A stretch of 64,000 nucleotides of DNA from Patescibacteria group bacterium (GCA_028710985.1 JAQTTB010000001.1:167397-231396), one strand, 5' to 3'; positions 5,801 through 63,290 are shown, counted from the stretch's first letter. Notes: a model not told the origin generated them from the sequence alone. A program made the numbers and translations.

Positions 5801-6319
5801 TTATTCGCCCAATTCAATTAATTTAATCGGATTATTAATAATATAATTGCGGATTCTCTCCAAATCGTCATCGCATCGGACGATATGATCATAATACGAT
5901 CTTTGCCATCGAAAATCCGTTAAACCCATTTGATGAATTAATTTTGATGATGTGGTTTTAAACGCGCCAATCAATTCGGGAATCGGTTTAATTTTTCCCG
6001 GTAGGGACAGGTCGCGACCTGTCCCTACGTCGTGGTCGCGACCTGTCCCTACGATGGGATTATTGATGATTATTATTCCATGAAAATGGTTGGGCATTAC
6101 AACGGATTGATCCAATTTGATATATAAATATTGTTCCGCTAACCACAACCATTGTTTTTTGACAATCTCGCCAAATTTATTTAATTGCATCACGCCGTCA
6201 TGAATGCAACCGAAAACATGCGAACGATCATTAACACATGTGGTAATAAAATAAAAACCGTTTTGCGAATAATCGTACTCGCTCAAACGGTTTAATTTTC
6301 TATCCTTCTCTTGCGGCAT
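5801..6319 (-). CDS. IS200-like / REP-associated tyrosine transposase (RAYT) with an in-frame REP palindrome insertion
   Basis: Start taken at MPQEKDRK (Met 43 of the track ORF 5801..6445, which otherwise overlaps the upstream gene). HuH motif MPNHFHGIIII. Catalytic-Tyr region RSYYDHIV...YIINNPIK. Between these motifs the palindrome GTAGGGACAGGTCGCGACCTGTCCCTAC (plus a partial second copy) encodes GTGRDHDVGTGRD. Confidence 0.7.
   Translation of the reverse strand: MPQEKDRKLNRLSEYDYSQNGFYFITTCVNDRSHVFGCIHDGVMQLNKFGEIVKKQWLWLAEQYLYIKLDQSVVMPNHFHGIIIINNPIVGTGRDHDVGTGRDLSLPGKIKPIPELIGAFKTTSSKLIHQMGLTDFRWQRSYYDHIVRCDDDLERIRNYIINNPIKLIELGE
6001..6052. repeat. REP-like palindrome GTAGGGACAGGTCGCGACCTGTCCCTAC (1.8 copies, tandem) inside the RAYT ORF
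   Basis: Perfect 28 bp palindrome at 6001..6028, followed by GTCGTGGTCGCGACCTGTCCCTAC. A near-identical copy is at 38011..38038. Confidence 0.8.
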
Positions 6320-6329
6320 TATAAAAAAA

Positions 6330-7265
6330 TTAAAGAGTTGTAATCGGCCGTGATTGGACGATATAAAATTTTCCGCCCTCAAGCGCCCATTCAATATCCT
6401 GCGGCGCGCCGTAATGCTCTTCGATTTTTTTACAAATTTTCGCAAGCGCGACGATGTCTTTATTGGAAATTTTTTGCACGGTCTGGCGCTCGCGGGGAAC
6501 CGCGGTCTCCCTGGTGCCGACCGTGCTCTGTGAAATCATTTTTTCCTGGCGGCTCACATTCACGTCCAGAATCGCGAGCGTTGGCTTATCGACAATATAC
6601 GTATCCGGCGTGATGATGCCGCCGACAATCGCCTCACCCAGTCCCCAGCCCGCCTCAATCACCATTTGGTTTAAATCCTTGGTTACCGGATGCGCGGTAA
6701 AACAAATGCCCGAAACCTCGGACTGAATCATCTTTTGTACGACAACCGCTACCAAAACTTTTCTTTCATGCAGATTTTTTTCAAAACGGTAAAAAATCGC
6801 GCGCGGCGTATAAAGCGATGACCAACATTTTTGAATCGCGGCCGCGATCCGCCCCTCGGTGATATCAAGATATGATTCCAACTCTCCGGCCCAGGAAGCA
6901 ATTGCCGAATCCTCGGCCGTGGCGGATGAACGCACGGCCACAAATTCCGCGCCCAAATCTTTAAATGACTTTTTAATCTCTCTCGCCATCTCTTCCGGAA
7001 ACTCGGCATCGCGGATTAAGTCGCGGATTTTTATTGACGCCTCTTCCACGGATTTAATATCCTGTGAATTTACTTTTTTGAGAATCGCCGCGATTTCCAC
7101 GTTCAAATCCGAAATTTTCAAAAATTCGTCAAATGCCGAAGCGAGCACCACGAATCCGGGCGGCACCGGCATCTTGGCCCGGGTCATCTCACTGAGCGAC
7201 GCCCCCTTGCCGCCGGCAATAGCCACGTCTTTGGCAGAAAGCTGTTTAAAATTTTTGATAAACAT
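6330..7265 (-). CDS. PEP synthase / pyruvate phosphate dikinase-like N-terminal ATP-binding (PPDK_N) domain protein
   Basis: MFIKNFKQLSAKDVAIAGGKGASLSEMTRAKMPVPPGFVVLASAF matches the PPDK_N/PEP synthase nucleotide-binding domain consensus. It is the second gene of a two-gene unit with 7267..8403. Confidence 0.75.
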   Translation of the reverse strand: MFIKNFKQLSAKDVAIAGGKGASLSEMTRAKMPVPPGFVVLASAFDEFLKISDLNVEIAAILKKVNSQDIKSVEEASIKIRDLIRDAEFPEEMAREIKKSFKDLGAEFVAVRSSATAEDSAIASWAGELESYLDITEGRIAAAIQKCWSSLYTPRAIFYRFEKNLHERKVLVAVVVQKMIQSEVSGICFTAHPVTKDLNQMVIEAGWGLGEAIVGGIITPDTYIVDKPTLAILDVNVSRQEKMISQSTVGTRETAVPRERQTVQKISNKDIVALAKICKKIEEHYGAPQDIEWALEGGKFYIVQSRPITTL

Positions 7266-7266
7266 A

Positions 7267-8403
7267 TTATTTTGCCTTTCTGATTACGGTAACGCTTCCC
7301 CGCGTCGCGTCCACTTCCACCTCATCCCCGTCTTTCAGAACCTGCGTCGCAATTTTGGTGCCGGTGATGCACGGAATTTTAAATTCCCGGGAAACGATGG
7401 CCGCGTGGCAGGTGATGCCGCCCTCGTCGGTGATGATTGCTTTGACGCCCCGGAGATACGGAATAAAATGCGGCGTTGTTTGAACCGCGACCAGCACCCG
7501 GCCGTTGATTTTATTAGTTTTGCGCGCCAGTTCGCGGGCATTGCGCGCCAGCACGACTTGTCCGCGCACCCGGCCGCGAAAAGCCGGTGCGCCAAAAACC
7601 TGATTATCTTTCATCTGATATTTTTTATTTTCCGCAACCATGAGAATGTCCAAAAATTTCACGATCCCGGGAACGACTTTCTTATTGCTGATTACTTCCG
7701 CCTCCCGGCCATTCAGGCAAACAAAAATTCGTTTTCCGGCCTTTCCCTGCGCCACGATTCGGCGCGCCTCGCGGGCCGTAATTTCTCCGCGCTTAATTTT
7801 TATCACTTCTTCAACCGTAAAATATTTCATTATATCCTTGGCGGAAATTTTAATATTCAATCTCCGAATCAGCCGCCGGATGCTTTTAAAAAGCATCTCC
7901 CCCAATTTTTCCTCGGGCAAAGCCTGCGCGTTGCGCCAGCGATCGTGCTCGGCGAGCGCGCGCCGAGCAAGGGCGCCGGAAAATTTTTCCGTATTTTCCC
8001 TCATCACCTTGCCCAAAGAAAAAATTATCAAAAAAAGCGCGCTGTGCCGGCCGTAAACTTTTCGGAATTCTTCAAAATCACCGGCCCGTGCCGCGGCTCT
8101 CATTTTCGGCCAAAGCGCGTCATCTTGCTTTATATATTTATTAATAATTCCATTGTCCCGCAAAGCACACTTGAGCGAACGCGCATGAAACCGTTTGGCA
8201 TCGGCCAGATTAAAAATTCGCACCGGCAAAACCCGGCCGGACGCCACCCAAATTTCACCGATCGTGCCCGGCCAGCCGTACTGTTTCATCAGCGCATTCC
8301 GGTTTAAAAAAGCTGACGTAATAAAAAACATGGACTCATCGACCCGCACGCCGAAGAACCATTTTTGCCTCTTGATATCGCGGGAAATATTAATACTCAT
8401 CAC
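7267..8403 (-). CDS. PEP-utilizing enzyme mobile (phosphohistidine) domain protein
   Basis: The C-terminus AIITDEGGITCHAAIVSREFKIPCITG is the PEP-utilizers phosphohistidine swivel-domain signature (GGxTSHAAIxARExGIPxV). The ~250 aa N-terminal region is unassigned. Confidence 0.7.
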   Translation of the reverse strand: MMSINISRDIKRQKWFFGVRVDESMFFITSAFLNRNALMKQYGWPGTIGEIWVASGRVLPVRIFNLADAKRFHARSLKCALRDNGIINKYIKQDDALWPKMRAAARAGDFEEFRKVYGRHSALFLIIFSLGKVMRENTEKFSGALARRALAEHDRWRNAQALPEEKLGEMLFKSIRRLIRRLNIKISAKDIMKYFTVEEVIKIKRGEITAREARRIVAQGKAGKRIFVCLNGREAEVISNKKVVPGIVKFLDILMVAENKKYQMKDNQVFGAPAFRGRVRGQVVLARNARELARKTNKINGRVLVAVQTTPHFIPYLRGVKAIITDEGGITCHAAIVSREFKIPCITGTKIATQVLKDGDEVEVDATRGSVTVIRKAK

Positions 8404-15023: not shown

Positions 15024-15096
15024 TCGGGCTGACCGGACTCGAACCGGCGACCTTACCCACCCCAAGGGTACGCGCTACCAACTGCGCTACAGCCCG
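15024..15096 (-). tRNA. tRNA-Pro (anticodon GGG)
   Basis: Reverse complement: CGGGCTG-TA-GCGC-AGTTGGTA-GCGC-G-TACCC-TTGGGGT-GGGTA-AGGTC-GCCGG-TTCGAGT-CCGGT-CAGCCCG-A. A clean cloverleaf, 73 nt, with no encoded CCA. Confidence 0.8.
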
Positions 15097-15126
15097 GCAA
15101 AATATTATCGAAATGCTTTATTTTAG

Positions 15127-15262: not shown

Positions 15263-15306
15263 GTAGGGCTGTGCCGCGATACGAAACTCGTACCGCCGCA
15301 CAGCCC
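15263..15306. repeat. REP-like palindrome GTAGGGCTGTGCCGCG...CGCCGCACAGCCC
   Basis: Long GC-rich inverted repeat beginning with the GTAGGG head shared with the other REP copies. Confidence 0.6.
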
Positions 15307-15453
15307 TTAATAAAGAGGCCTGGAATCGAGGGGGTCGGAGGCAAGCCCCAATAATGGGTGCCGAAATCGGCAAAATGCTCGCTCCCCCTCCTCAATTACA
15401 TTAAAAAATATAATTGATTGGGGTTTGCGTCAACGTACATTATCCACAGCGTC

Positions 15454-15918
15454 TTACGCTGCCATCACTCCGCCGCCGGTTTCACTATTTTTCGCATATT
15501 GATTATCCAGATATTCCTGCGCCAAATCCCAGGCGGATTCAACGTCTTGATTGCTGAGTGTGGCGCGTGCCCCATGCGCCCCGTAAGAGGCTTCGAGACC
15601 CATAAGCGCCTGTACAAAATCCTGATTTAACTTGAGCGTCTCGATCTGTTCTTCCCGGGTGACGCCCGGCACCGGACGCCATTCAAATTTGGGATGCTTG
15701 TCGAAAAATTCCGGCAGCACCATATAGGCAAGTGCTTCAACCGCCTGGCGTCTTGGCGCATTTTCCGGCAATTTATTCAAATGTTCGCGCGCCGTATCTC
15801 CCCCGGCAGTTGATTCAAATTCTTCCGCCTGGACCACCGACTTAGCTTCGCGCATAATCTCTTCCGGCAGCGGCTGCTCGGGTCTCGGCCTACTTGTTTC
15901 GTATCCAAAAAATTTCAT
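15454..15918 (-). CDS. Hypothetical protein (154 aa, acidic)
   Basis: ORF with reasonable codon usage. No recognizable motif. Confidence 0.5.
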   Translation of the reverse strand: MKFFGYETSRPRPEQPLPEEIMREAKSVVQAEEFESTAGGDTAREHLNKLPENAPRRQAVEALAYMVLPEFFDKHPKFEWRPVPGVTREEQIETLKLNQDFVQALMGLEASYGAHGARATLSNQDVESAWDLAQEYLDNQYAKNSETGGGVMAA

Positions 15919-16598: not shown

Positions 16599-17486
16599 TC
16601 AAAATGTAAAATTTTTACCGTCACTTGTAAATATTACCGTACCGCCTAAATCAGTTCGTTTAATTTCCATCCCCGCTCTTTCCAATCGCTTGATAGTCCT
16701 CTCCGACGGATGCCCGAAATCATTTCCTTGTCCCACTGATATCACCGCATTTTTTGCGCCAACCGCGAGCAAAAATCCTTCATCCGATGAATATTCACTG
16801 CCATGATGCCCGATCTTGAGGACATCGGCCGCAACATCCTGTCCCGACATAATGAGCCCGACTTCGCCCTCAATCCCGAGATCGCCTGTAAACAACGCCC
16901 GCGTCTCTCCATATCGCACCGCAAACACGATGCTCGTGTCATTTAAATTTTCCACGCGCTGGCCGGAAAATGATTCTTTCGGAAATAGAACCTCAAGCCT
17001 TACCCCACCGGGCAAACCTTCCTCGAACGGAGCATCCACGATTTGGGTGGTAATATTTTTTTCCTGAATCAATTTTAAGAATTCAATGTAATCGCTTGAA
17101 GTATGCAGGACCCCGGTCATATAAACTTTTCCGACATCATACCGCCGCAAAACCTCAACCAGCCCGGCCACGTGGTCGGAATGCGGATGCGTAAGCACCA
17201 CGGCGTCAATCGAACGGTCCCAAAAAGGCATGGCATCGCCAAGTTGTGTGAGAATCGATTTATCCGGTCCGCCATCAATTAAAATCTGATATTTCTCCGA
17301 CGTTTCAATAAAAATCGCGTCCCCCTGGCCGACATCAAGGGCTTCGATCGTGAGGCGCGGTCCGTCGGTACCCGCGGCCCGATCTCTCGAAATATCAAGA
17401 TACGCGTACACGAGCGCCGCGACCGCAAGAATGGCAATTAAAAATTTTGCGTGTTTCATTTTATACTTATAATCTTTTATTTCCAC
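16599..17486 (-). CDS. ComEC/Rec2-related metallo-beta-lactamase domain protein (competence)
   Basis: LDVGQGDAIFIET...VVLTHPHSDHVAG is the MBL HxHxDH motif in the ComEC C-terminal domain style. Overlaps the upstream ComEC membrane-domain ORF by 20 nt. Confidence 0.75.
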   Translation of the reverse strand: MEIKDYKYKMKHAKFLIAILAVAALVYAYLDISRDRAAGTDGPRLTIEALDVGQGDAIFIETSEKYQILIDGGPDKSILTQLGDAMPFWDRSIDAVVLTHPHSDHVAGLVEVLRRYDVGKVYMTGVLHTSSDYIEFLKLIQEKNITTQIVDAPFEEGLPGGVRLEVLFPKESFSGQRVENLNDTSIVFAVRYGETRALFTGDLGIEGEVGLIMSGQDVAADVLKIGHHGSEYSSDEGFLLAVGAKNAVISVGQGNDFGHPSERTIKRLERAGMEIKRTDLGGTVIFTSDGKNFTF

Positions 17487-19002
17487 AATATACCCAAATC
17501 AGAAGCCAGACGTACATGGCGATCAAAAATATGACGTGAAAAGCCGGCACTTGGACCTGTGCCCATGGAATACTCGCCAGAATCTCCGCGGCCTTGAGCA
17601 TGTAAGTAAGCGTGAGCCACGGCAATGTGGAAAAAATCACCGCGATCCACGGCGCGACGAAGCCGATGAGCACCGCGGCAAATCCAAGCGCCATGGTAAT
17701 GGGCACGGCCGGAAGAATCAGGAGATTCGCCACCGGCGCGATGAGCGAAAACCGGCTGAACTGAAAAATAATGAGCGGTGCGGTCGCGACAATCGCCGCG
17801 ATCGTGGAAGTAAGCGACTCCTGGAGTCCCAAAATTTTCGGCACGCGACTAAACCACGGTTCAAGAAGCGGCGCGAGATACACGAGTCCCACGGTTGAAA
17901 TAAATGAAAGCTGGAACCCGGCGTCAAACATGAGAACGCGCGGATTTACAGCGCACATGAGCCCTGCTGTGAGTGCAAGCACGTTAAAAATTCTTGACGC
18001 CCGTCCGGACTGTTTGGCCGCGAGCACGAGAACGCCCATAATACCGGCGCGCACCACCGAAGCCGAGGCGCCTGTAAATATCACGAAAATAATTATTGCC
18101 CCGACTATCCAGGGAAACGCCTTGCGCCGCGAAAATCCCAGTCCGAATGCCATCGCGAGAAGCACGGACGCCACGATGGTTATGTTATACCCGGAAATCG
18201 CCACAATGTGCGATACGCCGGTCGCCTGAAAATTATTCTTTACGTCATCCGGCAAACCGCTTCGCGCTCCATAAAGTATTCCGGCAAGCAGGCTTGCCTG
18301 CGGTTCGGAAAAAATCCGGTTCGTCATTTCGGCGAATTTGCTTTTCACGAAAAGCAAGCCGGATAAAACCGGATTGCCGCTCCCGGAAGAAACAAGTTTG
18401 ATTTCCGCGCGCGGATAACAAAGCGCAAATATACCGTCTTTGCCCAAATACTCGTCATAGCGGAAATCCTCAATCGCCTCCGGTTTTCTGATCTCGCACG
18501 CCGTTTCAATGATATCACCATATTTAAACTCCGGAAAAAGCCCGGCCGAAACCAACACGCGGCCGCCAACGCTCCGATCCTCGGGAGAAATTATTCTTTG
18601 CGCCGCGACCGTGTATTTAATGCCGTCAATCCGCGCGTCCGGTTCAGCCGCAACAACGCCCTGCCAGGTTATATATTCATCATAATGCCCCTGGATTTTA
18701 TCCGCCCGGAAATCCGGCAGGCTCGCGGAAAATCGCCACGCGCCCAAAATAACGAATAAAGCCGAAAAACAGATCAATCTAACTCGTTTATTTTTCCAAA
18801 AAACGCTCAAAAAAAATATGGCGGCCGCACCCGCGCTCGCCGGCAGCCACCATTCAAAATTTCTTTGAGCGATCGATTCCGCCGCAATGCCGACGATGAA
18901 CGCAAAACAGCAGATTAAAAATATTTTTGATTTTGAGTGAGCTATTACGGTGAGACTATTCCTCATATTGAGCGTGGATTCCCGCTTTCGCGGGAATGAC
19001 AA
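17467..19002 (-). CDS. comEC: ComEC/Rec2 family competence membrane-channel domain protein
   Basis: Polytopic membrane protein with the ComEC 'competence' domain pattern (many TM helices, ...GVSHIVAISGYNITIV...). The first codons derive from a palindromic repeat (MSFPRKRES), so the true start is probably MRNSLTV (~18966). Confidence 0.7.
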   Translation of the reverse strand: MSFPRKRESTLNMRNSLTVIAHSKSKIFLICCFAFIVGIAAESIAQRNFEWWLPASAGAAAIFFLSVFWKNKRVRLICFSALFVILGAWRFSASLPDFRADKIQGHYDEYITWQGVVAAEPDARIDGIKYTVAAQRIISPEDRSVGGRVLVSAGLFPEFKYGDIIETACEIRKPEAIEDFRYDEYLGKDGIFALCYPRAEIKLVSSGSGNPVLSGLLFVKSKFAEMTNRIFSEPQASLLAGILYGARSGLPDDVKNNFQATGVSHIVAISGYNITIVASVLLAMAFGLGFSRRKAFPWIVGAIIIFVIFTGASASVVRAGIMGVLVLAAKQSGRASRIFNVLALTAGLMCAVNPRVLMFDAGFQLSFISTVGLVYLAPLLEPWFSRVPKILGLQESLTSTIAAIVATAPLIIFQFSRFSLIAPVANLLILPAVPITMALGFAAVLIGFVAPWIAVIFSTLPWLTLTYMLKAAEILASIPWAQVQVPAFHVIFLIAMYVWLLIWVYCGNKRL

Positions 19003-19048
19003 TTGTAAGGTTTTCGTTTTTGCGTCATTCCCGCGCAGGCGGGAATCC
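18976..19048. repeat. Inverted pair of hairpin repeat family C (GGATTCCCGCTTTCGCGGGAATGAC ... GTCATTCCCGCGCAGGCGGGAATCC)
   Basis: Two ~25 bp hairpins in opposite orientation separated by 23 nt, located between the comEC start and the methyltransferase stop. Confidence 0.8.
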
Positions 19049-19630
19049 AGTAGCTTCTATTGGTTTTTGAAGCAAAAATTCCAGAATTTCATGTTTATGC
19101 AATTGCGGTAATTTATCTTCGCGCGTGAACTGTCGTTTTTCAATAACTTTGAATTTCTCGACAAGTTTTAAAATATCATTTTCATCGCCGGAATAATCAA
19201 CATTGCCTTTTTCGTCAGTAATCGAAAGATTAAAATGAATGAACAGATATCCGCCGAGGGTCAAAGCACGATAAATCCCGGCGAGCGCTTTTTCCGCATT
19301 AAGATAATGAATAATATTAATCATAAAAAATGCCGAAACCTCCTCGTCGCCGAATTCCAAATTTTCCGCGTCCTGCTGGTCAAAGCGGCAATCTCGGCAA
19401 TTGGCCTGCGCCGCTTCAATCTCATCCTGTGAAATATCAATGCCGAGCGCGTCAAATCCACTTTTCTTAAAAACAATGACATCACGGCCCCGACCGCAAC
19501 CGATGTCCACGACCAAGCCGTGAAAATTATTATTTTTCAAAAAGTCCGCGAACCTTTCCGCGTACTCGGTCGGATGCGCGTCCCAATGCTTGCCTTTTTT
19601 ATATTTTTCAAACAATTCCACGGCTCGCAT
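19025..19630 (-). CDS. Class I SAM-dependent methyltransferase
   Basis: VVDIGCGRGRD is SAM-binding motif I. ~200 aa. Confidence 0.7.
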   Translation of the reverse strand: MRAVELFEKYKKGKHWDAHPTEYAERFADFLKNNNFHGLVVDIGCGRGRDVIVFKKSGFDALGIDISQDEIEAAQANCRDCRFDQQDAENLEFGDEEVSAFFMINIIHYLNAEKALAGIYRALTLGGYLFIHFNLSITDEKGNVDYSGDENDILKLVEKFKVIEKRQFTREDKLPQLHKHEILEFLLQKPIEATGFPPARE

Positions 19631-30406: not shown

Positions 30407-30424
30407 AATGTAAGGGTTGCATAT

Positions 30425-31249
30425 ATGCGACCCGTCCAATATATGACCCTCAAGTTCATCTTCTTCGGCGACGTGGTCGGCAAAATCGGCCGCCGCGCCC
30501 TCGCCCAAATCGTTCCCAAATGGCGTAAAAAATACGCGCCTCATTTGGTTTGCGCCAATGCCGAGAATCTGGCCCACGGCAAAGGCTTTACGCCCTCGAC
30601 CATGCGCGAGGCCATGGCTGCGGGAATTGATTTTTTCACCGGCGGCAATCATATCTTTGATAATAAAGCCGGCTTAAAAATATTCGATGATCCCGAACTC
30701 TCCCGCCTCGTTGTCCGGCCGTTAAATTATCCGACCAGTGTTCCGGGCGAAGGCTGCCGCCTCATTGAAGTTGAGCGCCATCCGGTGCTCATCGCAAGCC
30801 TCAACGGCCAGGTCGGTTTCCGCGAAAGCTTTGACTCTCCGTTTCTCGCGCTTGATAAAATGGTCCACAGGCACATTAAGCAGAACCCCGCGATTATTGT
30901 GGACTTCCATTCCGAAACGACTTCCGAAAAAGTCGCTTTCGGCCTTTACTCCGACGGCCGCGTTTCGGCCGTGCTCGGCACCCATACCCATATACCAACC
31001 GCCGATGCCAAAGTCCTGCCCCAGGGCACGGGTTACATCTCCGATATCGGCATGGTCGGCGAAGAAAACTCGGTCATCGGAGTAAAACAAAACGTGATTC
31101 TCAACAATTTTATTACCCAAATCCCGCAAATGCACGAATTTGCCGAAACCGGCCGGTGCGAAGTGAACGCGGTTTATTTTGAGATTGATTCAAAATCCCA
31201 CCAATGCCTGAAAATCAAGCTCCTGCAAACCGTGGTTGACGTAAAATAA
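30425..31249 (+). CDS. YmdB-like metallophosphoesterase (TIGR00282 family)
   Basis: FIFFGDVVGKIGRRAL...CANAENLAHGKG..GGNHIFD...TH are calcineurin-like motifs arranged as in B. subtilis YmdB. It lies immediately downstream of rny, as in Firmicutes. Confidence 0.8.
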   Translation: MRPVQYMTLKFIFFGDVVGKIGRRALAQIVPKWRKKYAPHLVCANAENLAHGKGFTPSTMREAMAAGIDFFTGGNHIFDNKAGLKIFDDPELSRLVVRPLNYPTSVPGEGCRLIEVERHPVLIASLNGQVGFRESFDSPFLALDKMVHRHIKQNPAIIVDFHSETTSEKVAFGLYSDGRVSAVLGTHTHIPTADAKVLPQGTGYISDIGMVGEENSVIGVKQNVILNNFITQIPQMHEFAETGRCEVNAVYFEIDSKSHQCLKIKLLQTVVDVK

Positions 31250-33577: not shown

Positions 33578-33685
33578 AAATTACGATTTTGTCAAGTAGG
33601 GGCGACTCGCGAGTCGCCCCTACTTGACGATTAATAAATATTTCTCTACAATAAGCTTAAATTTTAGTCTCGTCCGCTTTGCCTT

Positions 33686-37229: not shown

Positions 37230-37796
37230 ATGTTGAACATCAAAAGACTTCCAAATCAAAAAGAATTTGAAAAAACCATGTTCGCCCTGCGCCGGCATTT
37301 TATCGTACCCATAAAAATTATCATTCTATATGCGTTTCTTGCCGCCGTGCCTGTATTTTTTTATTTTTTTGCCCAAGAAAACCAGTCCGAAATCCTGACC
37401 GGCCGCATCAGCGGCCCAGTGAGTGTCCTCGCTCTCTCGATTTACGCTCTCGCAATCTGGCTCTTTTTTTTCAATAGCCTAATTGATTATTATCTTGATT
37501 TTTGGATCGTCACCAACGAGCGCATCATTAATATCGAACAGCGCGGACTTTTTTCACGGTCAGTTGCCGAACTAAAACTTTATCGCGTCCAGGATGTCAA
37601 AGCCGAAGTGCGCGGAGTCATGCACACCGTATTTGATTACGGGGATATTACAGTTCAAACCGCGGGCGAAGAAGCGCATTTCGTGTTCAAACAAGTGCCT
37701 AAGCCATACAAAGTCGCACGACAAATCCTTGAACTCGTAGAACAAGACCGCGAAAAGCATCTTGAGGAAATGCGCAATGAAATTACCGCCATATGA
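37230..37796 (+). CDS. Bacterial PH domain (bPH_2 / YdbS-like) membrane protein
   Basis: Two N-terminal TM helices, then IVTNERIINIEQRGLFSRSVAELKLYRVQDVKAEVRGV..DYGDITVQTAG, typical of DUF304/bPH_2. Confidence 0.65.
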   Translation: MLNIKRLPNQKEFEKTMFALRRHFIVPIKIIILYAFLAAVPVFFYFFAQENQSEILTGRISGPVSVLALSIYALAIWLFFFNSLIDYYLDFWIVTNERIINIEQRGLFSRSVAELKLYRVQDVKAEVRGVMHTVFDYGDITVQTAGEEAHFVFKQVPKPYKVARQILELVEQDREKHLEEMRNEITAI

Positions 37797-38014
37797 AAAT
37801 TCTTCATATTCTCTATTCCGCGCTCCGCGATAAAGAAATTGCCTGGTACTATAAAACGATTTTTATTTTAGTTGTGCTTATTTACATCATCTCTCCGATT
37901 GATGCGATTCCCGATGTCGTACCCGTCCTCGGCTTCTTGGACGACCTCGCCATAATCCCGCTTGCCGCGTATATCGCCCTACTCCTCATCCCCGACCGGA
38001 TAAAAAAACCGTAA
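37793..38014 (+). CDS. DUF1232 (YkvA-like) small membrane protein
   Basis: SPIDAIPDVVPVLGFLDDLAIIPLA matches the DUF1232 IPDFIPVIGYLDD signature. Confidence 0.65.
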   Translation: MKILHILYSALRDKEIAWYYKTIFILVVLIYIISPIDAIPDVVPVLGFLDDLAIIPLAAYIALLLIPDRIKKP

Positions 38015-38038
38015 GGACAGGTCGCGACCCGTCCCGAC
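38011..38038. repeat. REP-like palindrome GTAAGGACAGGTCGCGACCCGTCCCGAC (degenerate copy of the 6001 element), followed by a terminator hairpin
   Basis: Three mismatches to GTAGGGACAGGTCGCGACCTGTCCCTAC. It overlaps the stop codon of the DUF1232 gene. The terminator gccccgtcagtacgggc plus T-run follows at ~38043..38070. Confidence 0.75.
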
Positions 38039-40878: not shown

Positions 40879-41796
40879 ATGCTCGTCACCACTAAAAAAA
40901 TCCTTGGCCCAGCCCGGCGCGGCCGCTACGCGGTCGGCGCGTTCAATGTCAATAACATGGAAATCCTGCAGGCCGTTATTGCCGCCGGAATCCGGATGAA
41001 ATCACCGCTCATCATCCAGACCTCCGAAGGCGCGATTTCTTACGCCGGCATGGATTATCTCATCGCCATGACCCGCCTCGCCGCTTCTTCGCCCATTCCG
41101 GTCGCTCTGCATCTTGACCACGGCAAAAATTTAAAAATTATTAAAAAAGCAATTGATTCGGGTTACACATCGGTCATGTTTGACGGCTCGCATCTTCCGC
41201 TCGCGAAAAATATCAAATTCACGCGCCAGGTTGTCTCCTGGGCGCGCCGGCGCGGGGTTTCGGTTGAAGCCGAACTCGGCGCCATTGCCGGCATTGAAGA
41301 TTTTGTTTCCGTCTCGGCGCGCGACGCGCATCTCACAGGTCCGGAAGAAGCGCGCGATTTTGTCCGCCGGACCGGCTGCGACTCGCTCGCCGTGGCCATC
41401 GGCACGGCCCACGGCGCCTACAAGTTCAAAGGCGCCGCCAAACTGGATCTCGCCCGCCTTGCCGAAATCCGGAAAAAAGTCAGCGTTCCCCTGGTGCTTC
41501 ACGGCGCAAGCGGCGTGCCGCAGACTCTCGTGAGACAGGCGGAAAAATTCGGCGCCCGGCTGAACAATCCGCGCGGCGTTTCCGACACTCTGATTAAAAA
41601 AGCCGTCCGCCTCGGCATCTGCAAAATCAACACCGATACCGACCTGCGCCTTGCCTTTACCGCCGGTGTTCGCAGCGCCCTGGCCGAAAACCCCAAGGAA
41701 ATTGATCCGCGAAAAATCCTCGGCCCGGCGCGCGAGATTATTCAGCGGGTGGTGAAGCAGCGAATAAATATTTTTGGATCAAAAAACAAAGCCTGA
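40879..41796 (+). CDS. fba: Class II fructose/tagatose-bisphosphate aldolase
   Basis: YAVGAFNVNNMEI...LHLDHG...GTAHGAYK...LVLHGASG are class II FBA motifs. Confidence 0.9.
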   Translation: MLVTTKKILGPARRGRYAVGAFNVNNMEILQAVIAAGIRMKSPLIIQTSEGAISYAGMDYLIAMTRLAASSPIPVALHLDHGKNLKIIKKAIDSGYTSVMFDGSHLPLAKNIKFTRQVVSWARRRGVSVEAELGAIAGIEDFVSVSARDAHLTGPEEARDFVRRTGCDSLAVAIGTAHGAYKFKGAAKLDLARLAEIRKKVSVPLVLHGASGVPQTLVRQAEKFGARLNNPRGVSDTLIKKAVRLGICKINTDTDLRLAFTAGVRSALAENPKEIDPRKILGPAREIIQRVVKQRINIFGSKNKA

Positions 41797-41893: not shown

Positions 41894-42871
41894 ATGTTTG
41901 ACATTATTACTATCGGTTCGGCCACGCGCGACGTTTTTCTTGAGAGCGGCCAGATCAAAATAAAAAAATCCAAAACCTCCCCGACCGGGCTGGACGAGTG
42001 CATCCCGCTTGGCGCCAAGATTGAACTCAAGGATATTACTTTTGACACCGGCGGCGGCGCCACCAACGCGGCCGCGACCTTCGGAAATCTTGGCCTCAAA
42101 GCCGCGGCAATCTGCCGCATCGGCAAAGATTACGGCGGGCTTGAGATTCTTCAGGCTTTGAAAAACCGCGGCATCTCAAGCAAATTCATCCAGTATGATA
42201 AAAAACTCCGCACCGCCTATTCCCTGATTCTTCTCGCCGGTTCGGGCGAACGGAGCATTTTGGTCTACCGCGGCGCGAGTGAAAAAATATCGGCGAGTGA
42301 AGTTCCCTGGAAAGAAATAAAAACCAAATGGCTCTATGTGACTTCGCTTGCCGGCAACCTCGCTCTTACGAAAAAAATCTGGCAGTTTGCCAAAGCGAAT
42401 AAAATTAAAATCGCCTGGAACCCGGGCGGAAAAGAACTCGACCTCGGCTTTTCCCGGCTCGCTCCCCTGATCCGCCAGACCGATTTTTTCACCGTGAATA
42501 TTGAAGAAGGCGCCAAACTTGCCGGCACGAAAGATGGCGACGTTAAATCGATTGCCGCAAAACTGAAAAAAATCAGCCGTTGCCTTGCGATTACCGCCGG
42601 ACGCGAAGGCGCGTATGTTTACTCGCGGGGCGCGTCTCTTTATGCCCCGTCGCTCGCCGTGAAGCGCGTCAACACCACCGGCGCCGGCGACGCCTTTGGC
42701 TCCGGCTTCATCTCATCGCTTATTCTCCGCCGCGATCTGCGGCACGCCCTGCGCCTTGCCATCCTGAATTCCAATATGGTCATCACCAAGATGGGCGCGA
42801 AAAACGGACTTTTGGAAAAACTCCCCTCAAAAAAAGAATTGGACCGCGTCAAAGTCCGCAATATTAAATAA
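41894..42871 (+). CDS. PfkB-family carbohydrate kinase (ribokinase-like)
   Basis: Has DTGGGATNAAA and NTTGAGDAFGSGFIS, the GAGD motif of the ribokinase family. Confidence 0.85.
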   Translation: MFDIITIGSATRDVFLESGQIKIKKSKTSPTGLDECIPLGAKIELKDITFDTGGGATNAAATFGNLGLKAAAICRIGKDYGGLEILQALKNRGISSKFIQYDKKLRTAYSLILLAGSGERSILVYRGASEKISASEVPWKEIKTKWLYVTSLAGNLALTKKIWQFAKANKIKIAWNPGGKELDLGFSRLAPLIRQTDFFTVNIEEGAKLAGTKDGDVKSIAAKLKKISRCLAITAGREGAYVYSRGASLYAPSLAVKRVNTTGAGDAFGSGFISSLILRRDLRHALRLAILNSNMVITKMGAKNGLLEKLPSKKELDRVKVRNIK

Positions 42872-48087: not shown

Positions 48088-48184
48088 TCAAAAAATCCGT
48101 AGAGGCATACTGCAATGCGCTCCTATGGACATTCTCATAATCCGATATTATATATTTTGGCCAAATTTTGAATCGTAGGGGCCG

Positions 48185-48326
48185 ACCCCTGTGTCGGCCC
48201 AGGTAGCCACCGCGCCCAACGGTTACCTAGCCGGGGCGGACGCGGGGGTCCGCCCCTACACGCCGACAACATCCTCTGCGATATTTAACAGGGCGACCGC
48301 AAGGGTCGCCCCTACATACGAATCTT
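48185..48326. repeat. Cluster of three REP-like units (GTAGGGG + GC hairpin) downstream of 5S: one on the top strand and two on the bottom strand
   Basis: cGTAGGGGCCGACCCCTGTGTCGGCC (48185..48210), GGCGGACGCGGGGGTCCGCCCCTAC (48246..48270) and GGGCGACCGCAAGGGTCGCCCCTAC (48302..48326). They share the GTAGGG head with the other REP copies. BIME-like arrangement. Confidence 0.7.
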
Positions 48327-52875: not shown

Positions 52876-53508
52876 TTAATTAGATTTTTGAAAAATTACC
52901 TCAAATGAATCAATCAATTTCTTTCTTATCCGATTAACATCCAACGGCATTTGATTCACGCTTTTTTTTGTAATAACGCCAAAACCGACTTTTTCAGCTG
53001 TTTCAATTACTTTTTCCGGATCATGATAATAATATGGAACATCATACCCCTTTACGCCTTGAACCGAACTATTGTTCACGACAAAACTCAATGCAACGTA
53101 GCCCTTCGGACGCAGGGCCATATACCAATTTTCAAGTAGTATTTTCGCAATGTCGGAACTAATATATTGCAAAAAACGAGTTGCCACAACGGCCAAATAT
53201 TTTTCCTTTTCAAAAACAAATTTCTCAGCCTCTGCTTCGGTAAATGTAATCAAACCATGCTCTTTGTATTCCGATGGAAAAATATCAACAACATCAACGG
53301 CATCTACTCCATAGCCCATGCGAGCAAAAAAAACTGAATTCCGGCCATTGCCCGCACCAACATCCAGAACATGTCCGGGCAATTCCATATAATACGAAAG
53401 GTCTTGGCAAATCAAACTTGGCGTAGTTCTGGCAACGTAAAAACCATTATTATACGCCGTTCGCCAGCGTTGTTTAAAATCCTCGTTTACTGAAGGCATA
53501 TTTATCAA
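52876..53508 (-). CDS. Class I SAM-dependent methyltransferase (TehB-like)
   Basis: VLDVGAGNGRNSVFFARMGYGVDAVD resembles the TehB SAM-binding region (LDLGCGxGRNSLYL). Confidence 0.7.
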   Translation of the reverse strand: MINMPSVNEDFKQRWRTAYNNGFYVARTTPSLICQDLSYYMELPGHVLDVGAGNGRNSVFFARMGYGVDAVDVVDIFPSEYKEHGLITFTEAEAEKFVFEKEKYLAVVATRFLQYISSDIAKILLENWYMALRPKGYVALSFVVNNSSVQGVKGYDVPYYYHDPEKVIETAEKVGFGVITKKSVNQMPLDVNRIRKKLIDSFEVIFQKSN

Positions 53509-53590: not shown

Positions 53591-53627
53591 ATGATGATGG
53601 CCTGCCAGCCGAAGCCTTGGCGAAGGC

Positions 53628-53931: not shown

Positions 53932-54000
53932 AAAATCGCGAACGCGATTTTTTTATACCTCGTGCTATGATTGAATCAGAAGAAAAAAGTAGGAGGAAAT

Positions 54001-56424
54001 ATGAGAACCATCACAATCGCGCTAATCATCGTTATCACACTGCCGACATTTTTATTTATTCAAAATATTCCCGCGCGCGCCGAGGAAGCGCCGCGCGTGA
54101 TAATTAATGAGATTTTCTGGAGCGGCTCATCGCTTTCTATTGCCGATGAGTTCATCGAGCTCTACAATACCACGAATGAACCGATTGATATAAGCGGCTG
54201 GGAAATTGCCGGCGCGGCCACAAATAAAAATTCGTTAATTCTTCCAGTGAATTCCACCATTTCGGCGCTGGGATTTTTTGTTGTCGCCAATTATTCACCG
54301 GCCAACGAAAAATCAATTTTAAATATTGAGGCGGATTATCTTTCCGCTTCGATATCGCTCGCCAACTCGGACGCGTATTATGCCCTTCGCGGCCCCGATG
54401 GCGCAACCGTTGACGCGGCGGATGACGGCATGGGAGCGCCGTTCTCTGGCGACAATGAAAACAAGGCCTCAATGGCCCGTCGTCCCGGTTGCTGGAATGG
54501 TGGCGCTGGGGAATGTTGGTTTACAGCCACTTCCTCAGCGAATATCAAGCCCGAAAACACCGATCTCGCGACTCCGGGCGCTGACAATGCTTACGTTGAA
54601 CCGCCCATCGAGCCACCCGCCGATCCTCCGGCCGATCCGCCATCCGTCGACCCGGTCGATCCGGCAAATCCAGTTGATACACCCGCCACGACGCCTCTTG
54701 TCCTACCGCCAAAAATTTTAATCAATGAAATTTTACCCAATCCAGCCGAAGGTAGTGAATGGATTGAACTTTTTAATCCCACAACTTCAACCGCCGATCT
54801 CGCCGGCTGGTCACTCGAGGACGGCGCCGGACGAATCGCAAGTCTCTCCGGCGAGATTGAACCCGGCTACTGGCTATACGTCCTGAATTCAGCAAAACTA
54901 AATAACGGCGGCGATAAAATATATATCGAATATAATGAACAAATCATTGATCGGGTCGCTTACGGAAATTGGCAAGACGAGGATGTAGGCGACAATGCTC
55001 CATGCCCGGGCCGGGGCCAGTCCCTGGCCCGGTCTCCCGCGGCCGCGGACACGGATAATGACTTTCAGGATTTTAAAATCACCACCGCGCCCACGCCCGG
55101 GAGAGAAAACCAAATCAGCGCGCCCGAACCAGAATCCGAGCCCGAACCTCAGCCGACTACAACAACGATTGTTACTCCCGAAACGCCAATCATCACTCCG
55201 GAAACCTCAACCGCAACAATCGAAGTGCCCATATCTCAACCATTGAATTTCGCTTCCGGCACCATGATCATCACCGAATTCATGAGCAATCCCCCTTCCG
55301 GCGGCGTGGAATGGATTGAAATCTATAATCCTAGCACGCAAAAAATTATTTTGGATAGCTGGCACATCACTGACGAACGCGGCACTCCCACAAATCTTAG
55401 CGGTGAAATAAATTCGTTCGAATATTTGCCAATCTTTGCGCCGCGCGGCCGGCTGAATAATGACGGCGACATTATTTCCATATTTGATCCGTCCGGCGGT
55501 TTGATTGACCGCGTTGATTATCTTACCGATCTCTCTTCTCCGCCCAAGGGCGCAAGCCTGGCCCGGATGGATCCGGGCGTCTGGCAGGTGAGCGAAGCGC
55601 CGACTCCAGGCGGTGAGAACATCTCCGCCCCGCTGGCCGAAGAATCCGCCGAATCGGAAAAAAAGGCCGAGCCTGGCAAATCCAAACTCAATGCGACAGT
55701 CCAGCCGCAAGAATCCGGATTTGACGAAGCCTACGAATGGCAAGTCGGGGACAAAATAATCCTTAAAGCATTCGTTGCGACCGCGCCCGGGCATTTCTCG
55801 GGACAATATTTTTTTGCCGGCGACGAAGAAGGCCACGGCGTTCAGATATATTCATACCGCAAAGATTTTCCCGAACTCAAAGTCGGCGATTATATTGAGA
55901 TTAACGGCGAACTATCGCAATTTAAGAATATTTGGCGCATCAAAATAAAAACAAAAGACGATATTGCGATAATCGATTCCGGTCAAATCAAAGCAATTGA
56001 ACTCAGCATTTCGGAAATCGGCTCGGAGAACATCGGCGGCCTAGTAAAAATTAGCGGCGAAATTACCGAAGCCAAAAAATCATACTTTTATCTCGATGAC
56101 GGCGCCGAAATAAAAGTTGGCCTGGCAAAAAATAGAACAAAGAACTCATCCACTCTTGAAATTGGCGCGCGCGCTTCAGCGACCGGAATTCTGCTTGCAA
56201 CCGAAGACGGATTTTTCTTAGAAACACGCGAATTAAATGATATTCTGGTTTTCAATGAAGATAAGCCGGCGCCGGCGGCGACTGAGAATAGTCCGGCCGC
56301 AACATCCGAGCGCAAACGCTCAAATTACGCCGGCCTTATCCCCCTCGGCATCCTGGTCGCCGCCGGCGCCGCAAACATCAAAAAATTAAAAAAATTAATA
56401 AAAAATAAAAAGGAGGGAATATGA
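54001..56424 (+). CDS. Large secreted multi-LTD (lamin tail domain) protein with C-terminal membrane anchor
   Basis: Start taken at the ATG with an AGGAGGA SD (the track used an upstream TTG at 53971). Signal peptide MRTITIALIIVITLPTFLF. Three LTD-like modules: VIINEIFWSGSS..DEFIELYNTT, ILINEILPNPAEGSEWIELFNPT and MIITEFMSNPPSGGVEWIEIYNPS. Pro/Thr-rich linkers. C-terminal TM LIPLGILVAAGAA plus a basic tail. Confidence 0.75.
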   Translation: MRTITIALIIVITLPTFLFIQNIPARAEEAPRVIINEIFWSGSSLSIADEFIELYNTTNEPIDISGWEIAGAATNKNSLILPVNSTISALGFFVVANYSPANEKSILNIEADYLSASISLANSDAYYALRGPDGATVDAADDGMGAPFSGDNENKASMARRPGCWNGGAGECWFTATSSANIKPENTDLATPGADNAYVEPPIEPPADPPADPPSVDPVDPANPVDTPATTPLVLPPKILINEILPNPAEGSEWIELFNPTTSTADLAGWSLEDGAGRIASLSGEIEPGYWLYVLNSAKLNNGGDKIYIEYNEQIIDRVAYGNWQDEDVGDNAPCPGRGQSLARSPAAADTDNDFQDFKITTAPTPGRENQISAPEPESEPEPQPTTTTIVTPETPIITPETSTATIEVPISQPLNFASGTMIITEFMSNPPSGGVEWIEIYNPSTQKIILDSWHITDERGTPTNLSGEINSFEYLPIFAPRGRLNNDGDIISIFDPSGGLIDRVDYLTDLSSPPKGASLARMDPGVWQVSEAPTPGGENISAPLAEESAESEKKAEPGKSKLNATVQPQESGFDEAYEWQVGDKIILKAFVATAPGHFSGQYFFAGDEEGHGVQIYSYRKDFPELKVGDYIEINGELSQFKNIWRIKIKTKDDIAIIDSGQIKAIELSISEIGSENIGGLVKISGEITEAKKSYFYLDDGAEIKVGLAKNRTKNSSTLEIGARASATGILLATEDGFFLETRELNDILVFNEDKPAPAATENSPAATSERKRSNYAGLIPLGILVAAGAANIKKLKKLIKNKKEGI

Positions 56425-56909
56425 AAAAATTTAAACGCCAATCGCTTCCTGGTGACACCTGCTTTGTTACTGCCGTAACCAAGGGCCGCGAACCACTTCT
56501 TGCTGAACGAAAAAATATTATTCTTTTTCAACAAACCATGAAAGAAGTTCAGGCCATAAAAAATGTAAAAATTATCTCTTACGTTATTTTGCCGGATCAT
56601 ATTCACTTGATACTCTCTTGCGAATTTTACTCGGTCCCGGAAATTCTTCACTCTCTGGAATGGGGTTTCTCTAACAATTGGCGCCTTTTGCATCCCGCCG
56701 CCGAACTGCCGAATGCCAATCCCTGGCAATCGCGCGTCTGGGAGCACGTCATCCAAAGCGACGCTGAGCTGCAGTATCATATTAATTACATTATTAATAA
56801 TCCGGTGAAGCACGGCTTTGTCGACGATCCCGAAGACTGGCCATATTCTTCGTTCGCTCAGAATGTCTGCGATTATGATGCCTGGCAAGAGATGGAGCCG
56901 ATTGCCTAA
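56421..56909 (+). CDS. REP-associated tyrosine transposase (RAYT, IS200/IS605-like TnpA_REP)
   Basis: Has the HuH motif LPDHIHLIL and the catalytic Tyr motif YHINYIINNPVKHGFV, as in the TnpA_REP family. 162 aa. ATGA overlap with the preceding gene. Confidence 0.8.
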   Translation: MKKFKRQSLPGDTCFVTAVTKGREPLLAERKNIILFQQTMKEVQAIKNVKIISYVILPDHIHLILSCEFYSVPEILHSLEWGFSNNWRLLHPAAELPNANPWQSRVWEHVIQSDAELQYHINYIINNPVKHGFVDDPEDWPYSSFAQNVCDYDAWQEMEPIA

Positions 56910-56970
56910 AATACCTACCAAATTTTGAATTACAAATTTCGAATTTTGATTCAATTTTGAATAATAAATT

Positions 56971-57360: not shown

Positions 57361-57469
57361 TTAAAAATTCAAAAATAAAAAATCAAAAATTCGCCGCCCT
57401 GGGCGGCGTCACCCCCCTCTTGCCAACAAAAGAGTCTTGATATATAATTTCCATACAATAATCTTGCGG

Positions 57470-57545
57470 GCGGGTGTAGTTCAGTTGGTAGAACGTTTCC
57501 TTGCCAAGGAAAAGGTCGCCGGTTCGAATCCGGTCGCCCGCTCCA
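57470..57545 (+). tRNA. tRNA-Gly (anticodon GCC), CCA encoded
   Basis: GCGGGTG-TA-GTTC-AGTTGGTA-GAAC-G-TTTCC-TTGCCAA-GGAAA-AGGTC-GCCGG-TTCGAAT-CCGGT-CGCCCGC-T-CCA. Confidence 0.85.
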
Positions 57546-57567
57546 AAAATATTCCAAGCGGCCAGAG

Positions 57568-58572
57568 ATGGCCGTTTTTGCTTGTTTACAAGCAACGCAT
57601 TATAATATAAATACTATGTTCTATCCGATAAAACTTTTCTCCGACTGGCTCTCTTTCGCTGTTCTGCGCCTCGCGCCGGAATCTCATGCCGGCCTAGCCG
57701 TAAACTTTTTCGTCTACGATACGATAAAGGTTTTCATCCTGCTTGCAATCATTATATTCGCCGTCTCTGTACTGCGTTCATTTTTCCCCTCGAGAAAAAT
57801 CCGAGATATTTTGTCGCGCCAAAATCAATTTGTCGGTAATATCTTCGCCTCGCTGTTCGGCATCATAACTCCATTCTGTTCCTGCAGCGCCGTACCACTA
57901 TTTTTGGGTTTCATTGAAGCCGGCGTACCGCTCGGAGTAACATTTTCCTTTTTAGTGGCATCACCCATGATTAATGAGGTGGCGCTTATTCTGCTATTCG
58001 GCACCTTCGGCTGGAAAATCGCCGGGCTATATGTCTTAAGCGGCTTACTTATTTCTATTATTTCCGGAATAATAATCGGTAAACTGCCGGTCGAACATTT
58101 GCTGGAAAATATGGCAGTTGAAGAAAAAAATAAAATAAATCCAACGGGGATAGATTGGCGGAAAAGAATTCGGTACGCATGCGGCTATACCCGGAGAATC
58201 ATAAAAAAAATTTGGTTCTATGTTATTATCGGCATTGGGCTGGGCGCCTGGATCCACGGATATGTTCCGACAAATTTTTTAACGCAATACGCTGGTGCCG
58301 ATAAATGGTATGCCGTACCACTCGCAACCCTGATCGGCATCCCCCTATATTCCAATGCGGCCGGAGTGGTCCCAGTCGTTAATGCTCTGGCCGAAAAGGG
58401 AGTTGCGGTTGGTACGACCTTGGCATTCATGATGGCTGTGACCGCATTATCGCTTCCCGAATTCATGATACTGAAGCGCATCATGAAAACAAAACTAATT
58501 TTCATTTACGCTTCAATTGTCGGGCTAGGAATTATCTTTACCGGATATTTGTTTAATCTTATACTAAAATAG
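57568..58572 (+). CDS. DUF318/ArsP-like permease
   Basis: Polytopic membrane protein with a TPFCSCS motif, typical of the DUF318 (YraQ/ArsP) permease family. The start may be at the internal MFYPIKL (~57616). Confidence 0.65.
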   Translation: MAVFACLQATHYNINTMFYPIKLFSDWLSFAVLRLAPESHAGLAVNFFVYDTIKVFILLAIIIFAVSVLRSFFPSRKIRDILSRQNQFVGNIFASLFGIITPFCSCSAVPLFLGFIEAGVPLGVTFSFLVASPMINEVALILLFGTFGWKIAGLYVLSGLLISIISGIIIGKLPVEHLLENMAVEEKNKINPTGIDWRKRIRYACGYTRRIIKKIWFYVIIGIGLGAWIHGYVPTNFLTQYAGADKWYAVPLATLIGIPLYSNAAGVVPVVNALAEKGVAVGTTLAFMMAVTALSLPEFMILKRIMKTKLIFIYASIVGLGIIFTGYLFNLILK

Positions 58573-62659: not shown

Positions 62660-62660
62660 T

Positions 62661-63215
62661 CTATTTGCTTAAATAACGGAGCGCCTCGCGCACCTTGTCG
62701 CCCGTGTCCGTCACTTCCTCGGAAATTTTGCGCACCGCGTCGCGCGCCTGCGCGCTCGTGTACCCAAGATTCTTAAGCGCCTGAACCACTTCATGCTCCT
62801 CCTCGCCCTCGGCCGAAAGATCCAACTTGCCCTTAAGCTCAATGATAATTTTTTGCGCCGTCTTTTTTCCCACGCCCGAAACCTGGCTCACGTAATCAAC
62901 GTTGCCCTTTTCAATATTTTTGACAAGATCCGTGAGGCTCCCGAGCGCGAGCACGTTCATTGCCATTTTGGGGCCCACGCCGGAAATATCCAAAAGCTTC
63001 CAAAAAAATTCCAGTTCCCCACGCGTCGCGAATCCGTAAAGTTCACGGCTGTTCTCGCGCAGATATTCATGCGTGAAAAAAGTCTTTTTTTCGCCTTCGG
63101 CAATCAGGGCCGCGTATTTCACCGGTAAAAAAATCTGATACCCGATTCCCGCGTTTTCCAAAATCACATAATTCGCGCCTTTCGCTTTAATTATGCCGTC
63201 AACATACGTAATCAT
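62661..63215 (-). CDS. ruvA: Holliday junction DNA helicase RuvA
   Basis: MITYVDGII...GIGYQIFLP...LYGFATRGELEFFWKLLDISGVGPKMAMNVL. RuvA domains I and II with HhH motifs, plus a C-terminal domain III. Confidence 0.92.
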   Translation of the reverse strand: MITYVDGIIKAKGANYVILENAGIGYQIFLPVKYAALIAEGEKKTFFTHEYLRENSRELYGFATRGELEFFWKLLDISGVGPKMAMNVLALGSLTDLVKNIEKGNVDYVSQVSGVGKKTAQKIIIELKGKLDLSAEGEEEHEVVQALKNLGYTSAQARDAVRKISEEVTDTGDKVREALRYLSK

Positions 63216-63258
63216 ACGCGTTCATCTTATCAAAAAACGTCATCAAAATCAAATTGAA

Positions 63259-63290
63259 GTGTAGGGTTCGCATAAATGCGAACCCTACAC
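63259..63290. repeat. REP-like perfect palindrome GTGTAGGGTTCGCATAAATGCGAACCCTACAC
   Basis: 14 bp arms with a GTAGGG head and CCCTAC tail, as in the other REP copies. It is followed by a terminator hairpin (cccgctcgagacagatgtctcaagcggg) at 63296..63336. Confidence 0.75.

Follow-up and report, generated by a model that had tools for sequence, protein, structure and literature searches.

What is a repetitive extragenic palindrome (REP) doing inside the coding sequence of a REP-associated tyrosine transposase (RAYT)? The question is raised by a 64,000-nt stretch of DNA from a Patescibacteria group bacterium (GCA_028710985.1, JAQTTB010000001.1:167397-231396), hereafter the window, in which the gene RAYT1 encloses a perfect 28-nt palindrome in frame. 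A preliminary description of the window saw a complete REP/RAYT system with two transposase genes, and took the internal palindrome for self-targeting, or for domestication or inactivation of the enzyme by its own cargo. By analogy with characterized relatives, we think it likely that RAYT1 encodes, uninterrupted, a HuH/Y1 enzyme that cuts and joins single-stranded DNA and belongs to TnpA_Y1 subclass 2.4, equivalent to RAYT group 4, and that its REP is a tolerated, renewable one at a hot spot of the subfamily. Features are listed in Table 1.

The RAYT1 open reading frame (ORF) is intact, with HuH, W and Y motifs all present. Its HuH motif, PNHFHG at residues 76–81, fits the subclass 2.4 pattern NH[IFV]H, and its W motif (RWQRSYYDH) and Y motif (NYIINNP) fit the WQ and YIxNNP of that subclass; W138, Y159 and N163 are invariant across our homologue alignment (A1). 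The top Foldseek match of its AlphaFold model (pLDDT 86.8) was 4er8_A, E. coli TnpA_REP with a REP hairpin (E 4.7e-07, TM 0.59/0.61), and a profile built from alignment A1 also matched PDB 4er8. RAYT1 gave no match at all to the NCBIfam profile transpos_IS200. The protein is identical to NCBI PHW53_00840, from a metagenome-assembled genome of a Patescibacteria group bacterium, agreeing with the host that had been guessed from the window.

The internal palindrome, 6001–6028, lies as described between the HuH and Tyr motifs, where it codes for VGTGRDLSL, part of the loop that joins the HuH strand to the following helix. With the adjoining half-site, the coding strand of 6001–6052 translates in frame to VGTGRDHDVGTGRDLSLP, between strand 78–85 and helix 113–130. 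The 1.8 tandem copies claimed for this segment amount to the exact 18-nt direct repeat; TRF called no tandem repeat on 5900–6150, the repeat being too short to score. Residues 91–106 have pLDDT below 50, and the insert is modeled as a disordered surface loop, which would explain why it is tolerated. Two of the three reading frames through the palindrome are stop-free and the third contains TAG. In 28-mers of this kind GTAG pairs with CTAC, a "double foot", so the idea that GTAG lies in a single-stranded foot does not hold for them.

Table 1. Y1 genes and GTAG-headed or REP-like hairpins of the window, numbered from its first nucleotide
Feature	Position	Strand	Description
RAYT1	5801..6319	-	172-aa HuH/Y1 REP-associated tyrosine transposase, TnpA_Y1 subclass 2.4 / RAYT group 4 type
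Perfect 28-nt double-foot REP	6001..6028		inside RAYT1; sequence GTAGGGACAGGTCGCGACCTGTCCCTAC
18-nt half-site	6035..6052		exact direct repeat of 6011-6028, period 24; adds VGTGRDHD to loop
Long imperfect hairpin	15263..15307	+	GTAG head, no CTAC tail; GTAGGGCTGTG...CACAGCCCT; z -7.3
Degenerate REP-like palindrome	30410..30437		GTAAGGGTTGCATATATGCGACCCGTCC; between two + strand ORFs; z -3.0
Perfect 28-nt double-foot REP	33596..33623		different stem, GGCGACTCGCGAGTCGCC; intergenic, 62 nt upstream of tRNA-Lys; z -9.8
Degenerate copy of 6001 unit	38011..38038		3 mismatches; z -0.03
Single-foot REP, first of three	48175..48200	+	GTAGGGGCCGAC..., 8-bp stem; z -2.1
Single-foot REP	48233..48259	-	GTAGGGGCGGAC..., 9-bp stem; opposite orientation to 48175 unit
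Single-foot REP	48291..48315	-	GTAGGGGCGACC..., 8-bp stem; z -4.5
RAYT2	56421..56909	+	162-aa Y1 protein; intact ORF; PDHIHL, PWQSRVWEH, NYIINNP
28-nt double-foot REP	63261..63288		13/14 pairs, AA centre; intergenic; z -10.4

The insert across the family

Relatives of RAYT1 were sought in one genome per species, and at least 548 species-level genomes matched. Their hosts include Patescibacteria, Bacteroidota (among them cultured Pontibacter and Rufibacter), Omnitrophota and Gammaproteobacteria, and further Planctomycetes, Cloacimonadota, Calditrichia and Spirochaetia. The insert was compared in 81 genes, the one of the window and those of the 80 best loci. A recognizable REP occupies the same loop in 68 of the 80 relatives, from many phyla; 12 lack the insert in genes that are otherwise intact (for instance L056, L078 and L033), and decayed copies were found in 15. 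Perfect 28-nt palindromes stand at the insert position in 39/81 genes, and at least 12 of the 14 pairs are present in 54/81, where shuffled genes reached a maximum of 11. In 15 genes, belonging to different phyla, the REP at this place is identical to that of the window over all 28 nt.

We counted 30 distinct variants of the palindrome, with double-sided changes in 12 of its 14 pairs; examples of such compensated variants are ACAGG..CCTGT, AACGG..CCGTT and ACAACCCTAGGGTTGT. The covariation score of the palindrome was 0.427 against 0.118 for shuffled data, with none of 500 shuffles reaching the observed value. An alignment of 42 homologues has V-G-x-G-R-D-x-S-L almost unchanged between the HuH motif and the Tyr motif. 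Over the compared loci the palindrome is read in two frames, as VGTGRDLSL at 44 loci and as RDRSRPVPT at nine, the third frame being the one with the TAG stop. The loop peptide can shift radically, from GRD to TLG or from VGTGRDLSL to RDRSRPVPT, with pairing kept. Selection or renewal appears to act on the DNA of the insert and not on its peptide.

The central four bases of intact 28-mers are always self-complementary (CGCG or CTAG), which a hairpin loop does not require, and copies with an asymmetric centre (GTCACGAC, GTCTCGAC) also lack the GTAG foot. Such a self-complementary centre could point to duplex-level symmetry or to an origin by fold-back.

Insert state differs among close relatives. 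L079 and L001, with cores 74% identical, carry the same 28-mer in different frames; the frame or presence of the insert differs between L064 and L068 (82% identical); and L075 has an insert while its 75%-identical relative L078 has none. The loop would thus be a family-wide hot spot with turnover of REP copies. The claim of self-targeting can be kept in this weaker form. Half-site arrays resembling that of the window occur in L003, L028, L046 and L058, and the extra half-site in RAYT1 is a slippage-like duplication of a sort frequent in the loop. One Chitinophagaceae relative (L076, 10001–10594) has REP-derived repeats not only in the usual loop but also at a site between its first and second strands (VVGTGRDLSTNAGRDLPTNAG...).

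Similar copies gather around these genes. At the loci of RAYT1 relatives, GC-rich perfect palindromes number 1.5 per kb within the gene; the adjoining 250 nt have 1.6 per kb on the upstream side and 0.9 per kb on the downstream side, and the density more than 2 kb from a RAYT1-type gene is 0.02–0.03 per kb. This concentration of copies in and beside RAYT1-type genes suggests an enzyme activity centred on its own gene. Internal and flanking copies share the same central 16-mer at 18 of 25 loci, compared to 9.0 ± 1.8 in permuted data (0/2000 permutations reaching the observed count). Length is fixed: in 2 Mb of loci, 179/179 non-trivial perfect GTAG..CTAC palindromes are exactly 28 nt, the sole other being a trivial 16-mer.

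The exact 28-mer is also dispersed. We found it in at least 120 metagenome contigs, mostly distant from any RAYT gene and mostly intergenic. Among the matches listed there are 127 copies: 15 fall in RAYT-like genes and 10 no more than 300 nt from one, leaving 102 without such a gene in that range, although 31 of these are too near a contig end to judge. Dispersed copies lie outside ORFs of at least 100 aa in 70% of the 63 judged, versus 16% for random positions, and 11 of the 63 are in frame in long, mostly unrelated protein-like ORFs. In-frame VGTGRDLSL 28-mers were noted at L088 3987, L166 7034, L142 6030, L186 5966 and L169 796; the five host ORFs, named by eye only, resemble EF-G, UvrC, RNase HII, a Kdo-transferase-like protein and an acyl-CoA synthetase-like protein. 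Phages were considered as a vehicle of spread and rejected: 2.9 million viral contigs yielded four exact 28-mer matches and no RAYT1 relative.

Passenger, working part or recent insertion

A survey of TnpA_Y1 proteins (Quentin, Siguier, Chandler & Fichant 2018, BMC Genomics 19:475; PMC6006769) characterizes subclass 2.4 by the NH[IFV]H, WQ and YIxNNP motifs, by a variable insert between beta3 and alphaC, and by REPs of two kinds, canonical long ones and "double foot" ones (5' GT[AG]G, 3' C[TC]AC). REPs lying in frame within tnpA_REP, between HuH and Y, are given there as a unique feature of the subclass, which is equated with RAYT group 4 of Bertels et al. 2017 (PMC5581495). The 16-mers flanking group 4 genes are only moderately repeated, with ~14 occurrences (PMC5581495). 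RAYT1 shares the motifs, the beta3–alphaC insert, the double-foot and long REPs and the in-frame internal REP, and its family likewise shows a patchy spread over many phyla. Since RAYT1 has all the sequence hallmarks of subclass 2.4, the core of our finding is a known trait of a known subfamily, the assignment resting on motifs, insert and REP type. Patescibacteria, however, are not named in the survey, whose hosts are given as Cyanobacteria, Bacteroidetes and "various phyla", and no REPs flank RAYT1 within 1 kb. The survey regards the inserts as tolerated; it reports neither the two frames nor the compensated variants, neither the constancy of the 28-nt length nor the agreement of internal with flanking copies. 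What this analysis adds is the two-frame reading, the gain and loss among close relatives, and the match to flanking copies of the same gene. A literature search on RAYTs in Patescibacteria found nothing relevant.

Recognition and cleavage at GTAG by TnpA_REP are known from E. coli, Stenotrophomonas and Marinomonas biochemistry (PMC3479197, PMC8266576). By analogy, RAYT1 would bind the GTAG-footed hairpins that REPs form on single-stranded DNA, and would cut and rejoin DNA beside the GTAG foot. Such cutting and rejoining could seed and renew REP copies, mostly in or beside the gene of the enzyme and more rarely elsewhere. The REP in RAYT1 would then occupy the standard hot spot of the subfamily, the loop after the HuH strand.

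The E. coli enzyme (subclass 2.2, RAYT group 2; PDB 4ER8, PMC3479197, PMC8266576) is like RAYT1 in its fold, its HuH motif with a single Tyr, its Y---NP motif, its single-copy chromosomal gene and, presumably, its recognition of GTAG-footed REP hairpins on single-stranded DNA. It is only 20% identical to RAYT1, however, with motifs DHLH and YIHYNP, and E. coli REPs are imperfect and bulged with a single-stranded GTAG foot, number in the hundreds, and flank the gene but never lie inside it. In-frame insertion of short palindromes into surface loops of functional genes is also known for Rickettsia palindromic elements (RPEs) and other intragenic REPs (PMC3733652, Di Nocera et al. 2013), and the window 28-mer is likewise found in frame in unrelated genes. 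RPEs, by contrast, are longer, CGTC-tagged and without a dedicated transposase, and they target unrelated genes and not their own enzyme. IS200/IS605 TnpA (subclass 1.1) has the same HuH/Y1 core fold and uses subterminal hairpins on single-stranded DNA, but it is Y---Q and belongs to multicopy mobile insertion sequences (IS), often with tnpB; both Y1 genes of the window are Y---NP and have neither IS ends nor a tnpB partner.

The internal REP could instead be a selected working part, namely an autoregulatory hairpin in mRNA or single-stranded DNA, or a protected "master copy" for flanking and dispersed REPs. We judge this unlikely, though not negligibly so, and give the same weight to its version in which a templated process keeps a fixed 28-nt perfect palindrome in the coding sequence. 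It overlaps with the explanation we prefer, differing only on whether the internal copy has a function. Much of the comparative evidence suits it: 48% of orthologues keep a 14/14 palindrome at only 50–60% protein identity; the genes sharing all 28 nt (15/81), third codon positions included, belong to phyla as distant as Patescibacteria, Bacteroidota and Gammaproteobacteria; 12/14 pairs are compensated and the central four bases stay self-complementary in intact copies; and the internal copy matches flanking copies at the same locus. Ongoing re-insertion or conversion by the enzyme would, however, keep copies equally perfect. Further, 12/80 relatives do without the insert, the flips of frame and presence among close relatives look like turnover rather than constraint, and the same 28-mer is carried in frame by unrelated EF-G-like, UvrC-like and RNase HII-like genes, so in-frame carriage needs no special function. 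The frame switches, and the 12 relatives that lack an insert, favour a passenger that is tolerated and renewable.

A recent, one-off, self-targeted insertion that inactivated or domesticated RAYT1, as suggested in the preliminary description, is very improbable. The REP is indeed identical in sequence to dispersed copies, its partial tandem duplication looks "fresh", and insert state turns over among relatives. But the same position holds an insert in 68/80 relatives of many phyla, the ORF runs uninterrupted with HuH, W and Y intact, the insert is confined to a disordered loop, and the trait was described in 2018 as a hallmark of the whole subclass (PMC6006769).

Several points weigh against taking RAYT1 as an active enzyme with a renewable REP. 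RAYT1 scores just below the cut-off of the Pfam profile Y1_Tnp (PF01797; 22.1 bits, cut-off 23, with the match split in two) and well below that of the NCBIfam profile REP_Tyr_transpos (NF047646; 58.3 bits, cut-off 80), because the insert splits the match. Apart from the internal one, no GT[AG]G-footed hairpin was found in 4801–7319; lacking a flanking REP within 1 kb, RAYT1 is not a classical REPtron, unlike many of its relatives, which have flanking REPs. The other REPs of the window differ in stem, so RAYT1 may not be their cognate enzyme, and the rest of the 744-kb contig, beyond the window, could encode further RAYTs. The variant rows are the best-pairing 28-mers, so that the figure of 96% paired is circular in part, an objection that does not touch the contrast with shuffled genes. 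Finally, cleavage at a fully paired double foot by a subclass 2.4 enzyme is something we infer.

Other hairpins and the second Y1 gene

The pattern GTAGGG-N16-CCCTAC, with up to two mismatches, occurs five times in the window against 0.48 expected, a count reached by none of 100 shuffles, and all five GTAGGG hexamers of the window lie at a hairpin foot. Units 6001, 33596, 63261 and 15263 fold strongly as single-stranded DNA (z about -6 to -10). The identification of these hairpins as GTAG-footed REPs was therefore sound. Units 6001, 33596, 63261, 48175, 48233 and 48291 are palindromes of 20–40 nt with a GT[AG]G foot. In total the window holds three intact 28-mers, three single-foot units, one long imperfect GTAG-headed hairpin and two decayed copies; each REP stem occurs once or twice, and all copies except that of RAYT1 are intergenic or at a stop codon. 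These other copies are commonplace REPs, most of them between genes, and belong to the two types known from subclass 2.4, the 28-nt double foot and the single foot with a G-C-rich stem base. Rfam offered nothing meaningful for the hairpins, either over the whole window at the gathering threshold or in 33250–33700 and 15090–15460 at an E-value threshold.

The 33596 unit was absent from the first list of palindromes, and its palindrome extends to 33589–33630. The palindrome listed at 63259..63290 was real but is a 28-mer with one pair broken; a separate terminator hairpin (63305–63336) adjoins it. Neither stem was found in 2 Mb of relatives' loci, so the two units are not tied to a particular RAYT. 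The 38011 unit is, as first stated, the 6001 unit with three mismatches; it overlaps a stop codon, that of the small ORF 37793..38014, ahead of the terminator of that ORF, and folds no better than shuffles. Downstream of the 5S rRNA gene the reported cluster does contain three hairpins, at 48175–48316, of the single-foot type, with head GTAGGGGC and 8–9 bp stems, one unit in one orientation and two in the other. Head GTAGGGGCGAC is common to the 48291 and 33596 units. The 15263 hairpin, between gene 15454..15918 and tRNA-Pro, has the GTAG head but not the CCCTAC tail attributed to it. A core related to the 30410 unit, GGGTCGCATATATGCGACCC, was found in L006, L091 and L144.

That the hairpins are intrinsic terminators or unrelated GC-rich stems, with VGTGRDLSL a conserved motif whose palindromic coding is incidental, is practically untenable even though most copies lie at gene 3' ends and some stems are unique within the window, because the 28-mers have no T-run and true terminators stand beside them (63305–63336, 48334–48363 and downstream of 38038), while the 28-nt length is fixed in 179 palindromes, 5/5 GTAGGG are hairpin feet, and the peptide varies, in two frames, with pairing kept.

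Three other repeats were noted. At 18974–19049, where ORFs 17467..19002 and 19025..19630 meet, two GC-rich hairpin units of 26 nt, TGGATTCCCGCTTTCGCGGGAATGAC and GTCATTCCCGCGCAGGCGGGAATCCA, stand in inverted orientation 23 nt apart, one with a GTGG foot; the pair resembles a REPIN-style dimer from another repeat family. A stretch of ~280 nt (33307–33590), GC-rich and free of ORFs, lies just upstream of both the 33596 REP and tRNA-Lys; it has its own palindrome (33502–33527) and a terminator-like T-run, and matches no Rfam family. An AT-rich inverted repeat at 41799–41887, between ORFs 40879..41796 and 41894..42871, has 33-nt arms that are 82% complementary, with AGGAATCAGGAA-like units.

RAYT2, the second gene, scores above the cut-offs of Pfam Y1_Tnp (30.7, cut-off 23) and NCBIfam REP_Tyr_transpos (117.5, cut-off 80) and under that of NCBIfam transpos_IS200 (23.7, cut-off 55). 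Both genes are thus HuH/Y1 proteins of RAYT type as proposed, with the motifs present in each, the fold of 4er8_A in RAYT1, and RAYT2 above and RAYT1 below the profile cut-offs. They are related, but at 24% identity they are distant relatives and not close paralogues. The combination of DHIH and YIINNP in RAYT2 fits no row of Table 1 of PMC6006769 exactly.

No GT[AG]G-footed hairpin lies within 1 kb of RAYT2 (55421–57909), and no REPs were found beside its relatives at L081, L084 and L085. The start of RAYT2 overlaps the stop of an upstream gene (ATGA, 56421–56424; region 53971–56909) for an 817-aa protein with three lamin tail domains (LTDs). Its relatives P0125–P0127 (52–58% identity) are always directly downstream of a ~880-aa LTD gene, and at L081, L084 and L085 the order is LTD gene, Y1 gene, HU gene. 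RAYT2 seems to be a Y1 gene without REPs, fixed behind an LTD gene as if in an operon, and we found no evidence linking it to the window repeats. Because of this, "two RAYTs plus their REPs" overstates the case; with RAYT1 itself lacking flanking REPs, the complete system originally proposed is not supported. A Y1 nuclease of this sort, devoid of REPs and kept in one operon with a large, seemingly secreted protein, may serve the host.

Further observations were made. Right after RAYT2 and just before tRNA-Gly, a 129-aa ORF (56971–57360) matches PF05635, the family of 23S rRNA-intervening-sequence proteins, with 52 bits. At L085, a 31-nt palindrome (4446–4476) with a GTAGAG/CTCTAC foot (TGTAGAGACGAGGCACTGCCTCGTCTCTACA), situated within a gene of 635 aa near a RAYT2 relative, is another double-foot family. 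In 48368–53713, the 23S and 5S rRNA genes lie on the minus strand; 5' of the 23S gene, at higher coordinates, there is a possible 210-aa ORF (52876..53508), followed by tRNA-Ala and tRNA-Leu. No 16S gene was found in the window, so it appears to be unlinked.

Significance

REPs are among the commonest repeats of bacteria, and their spread is still poorly understood. RAYT1 is a Patescibacteria example of the sole RAYT subfamily that carries its own REP, and so extends the trait to very small genomes. The comparative data make a published curiosity testable: the internal REP may be a by-product of an enzyme acting beside its own gene, or a control element. The same arrangement is present in cultured Pontibacter and Rufibacter species, which could be used for testing.

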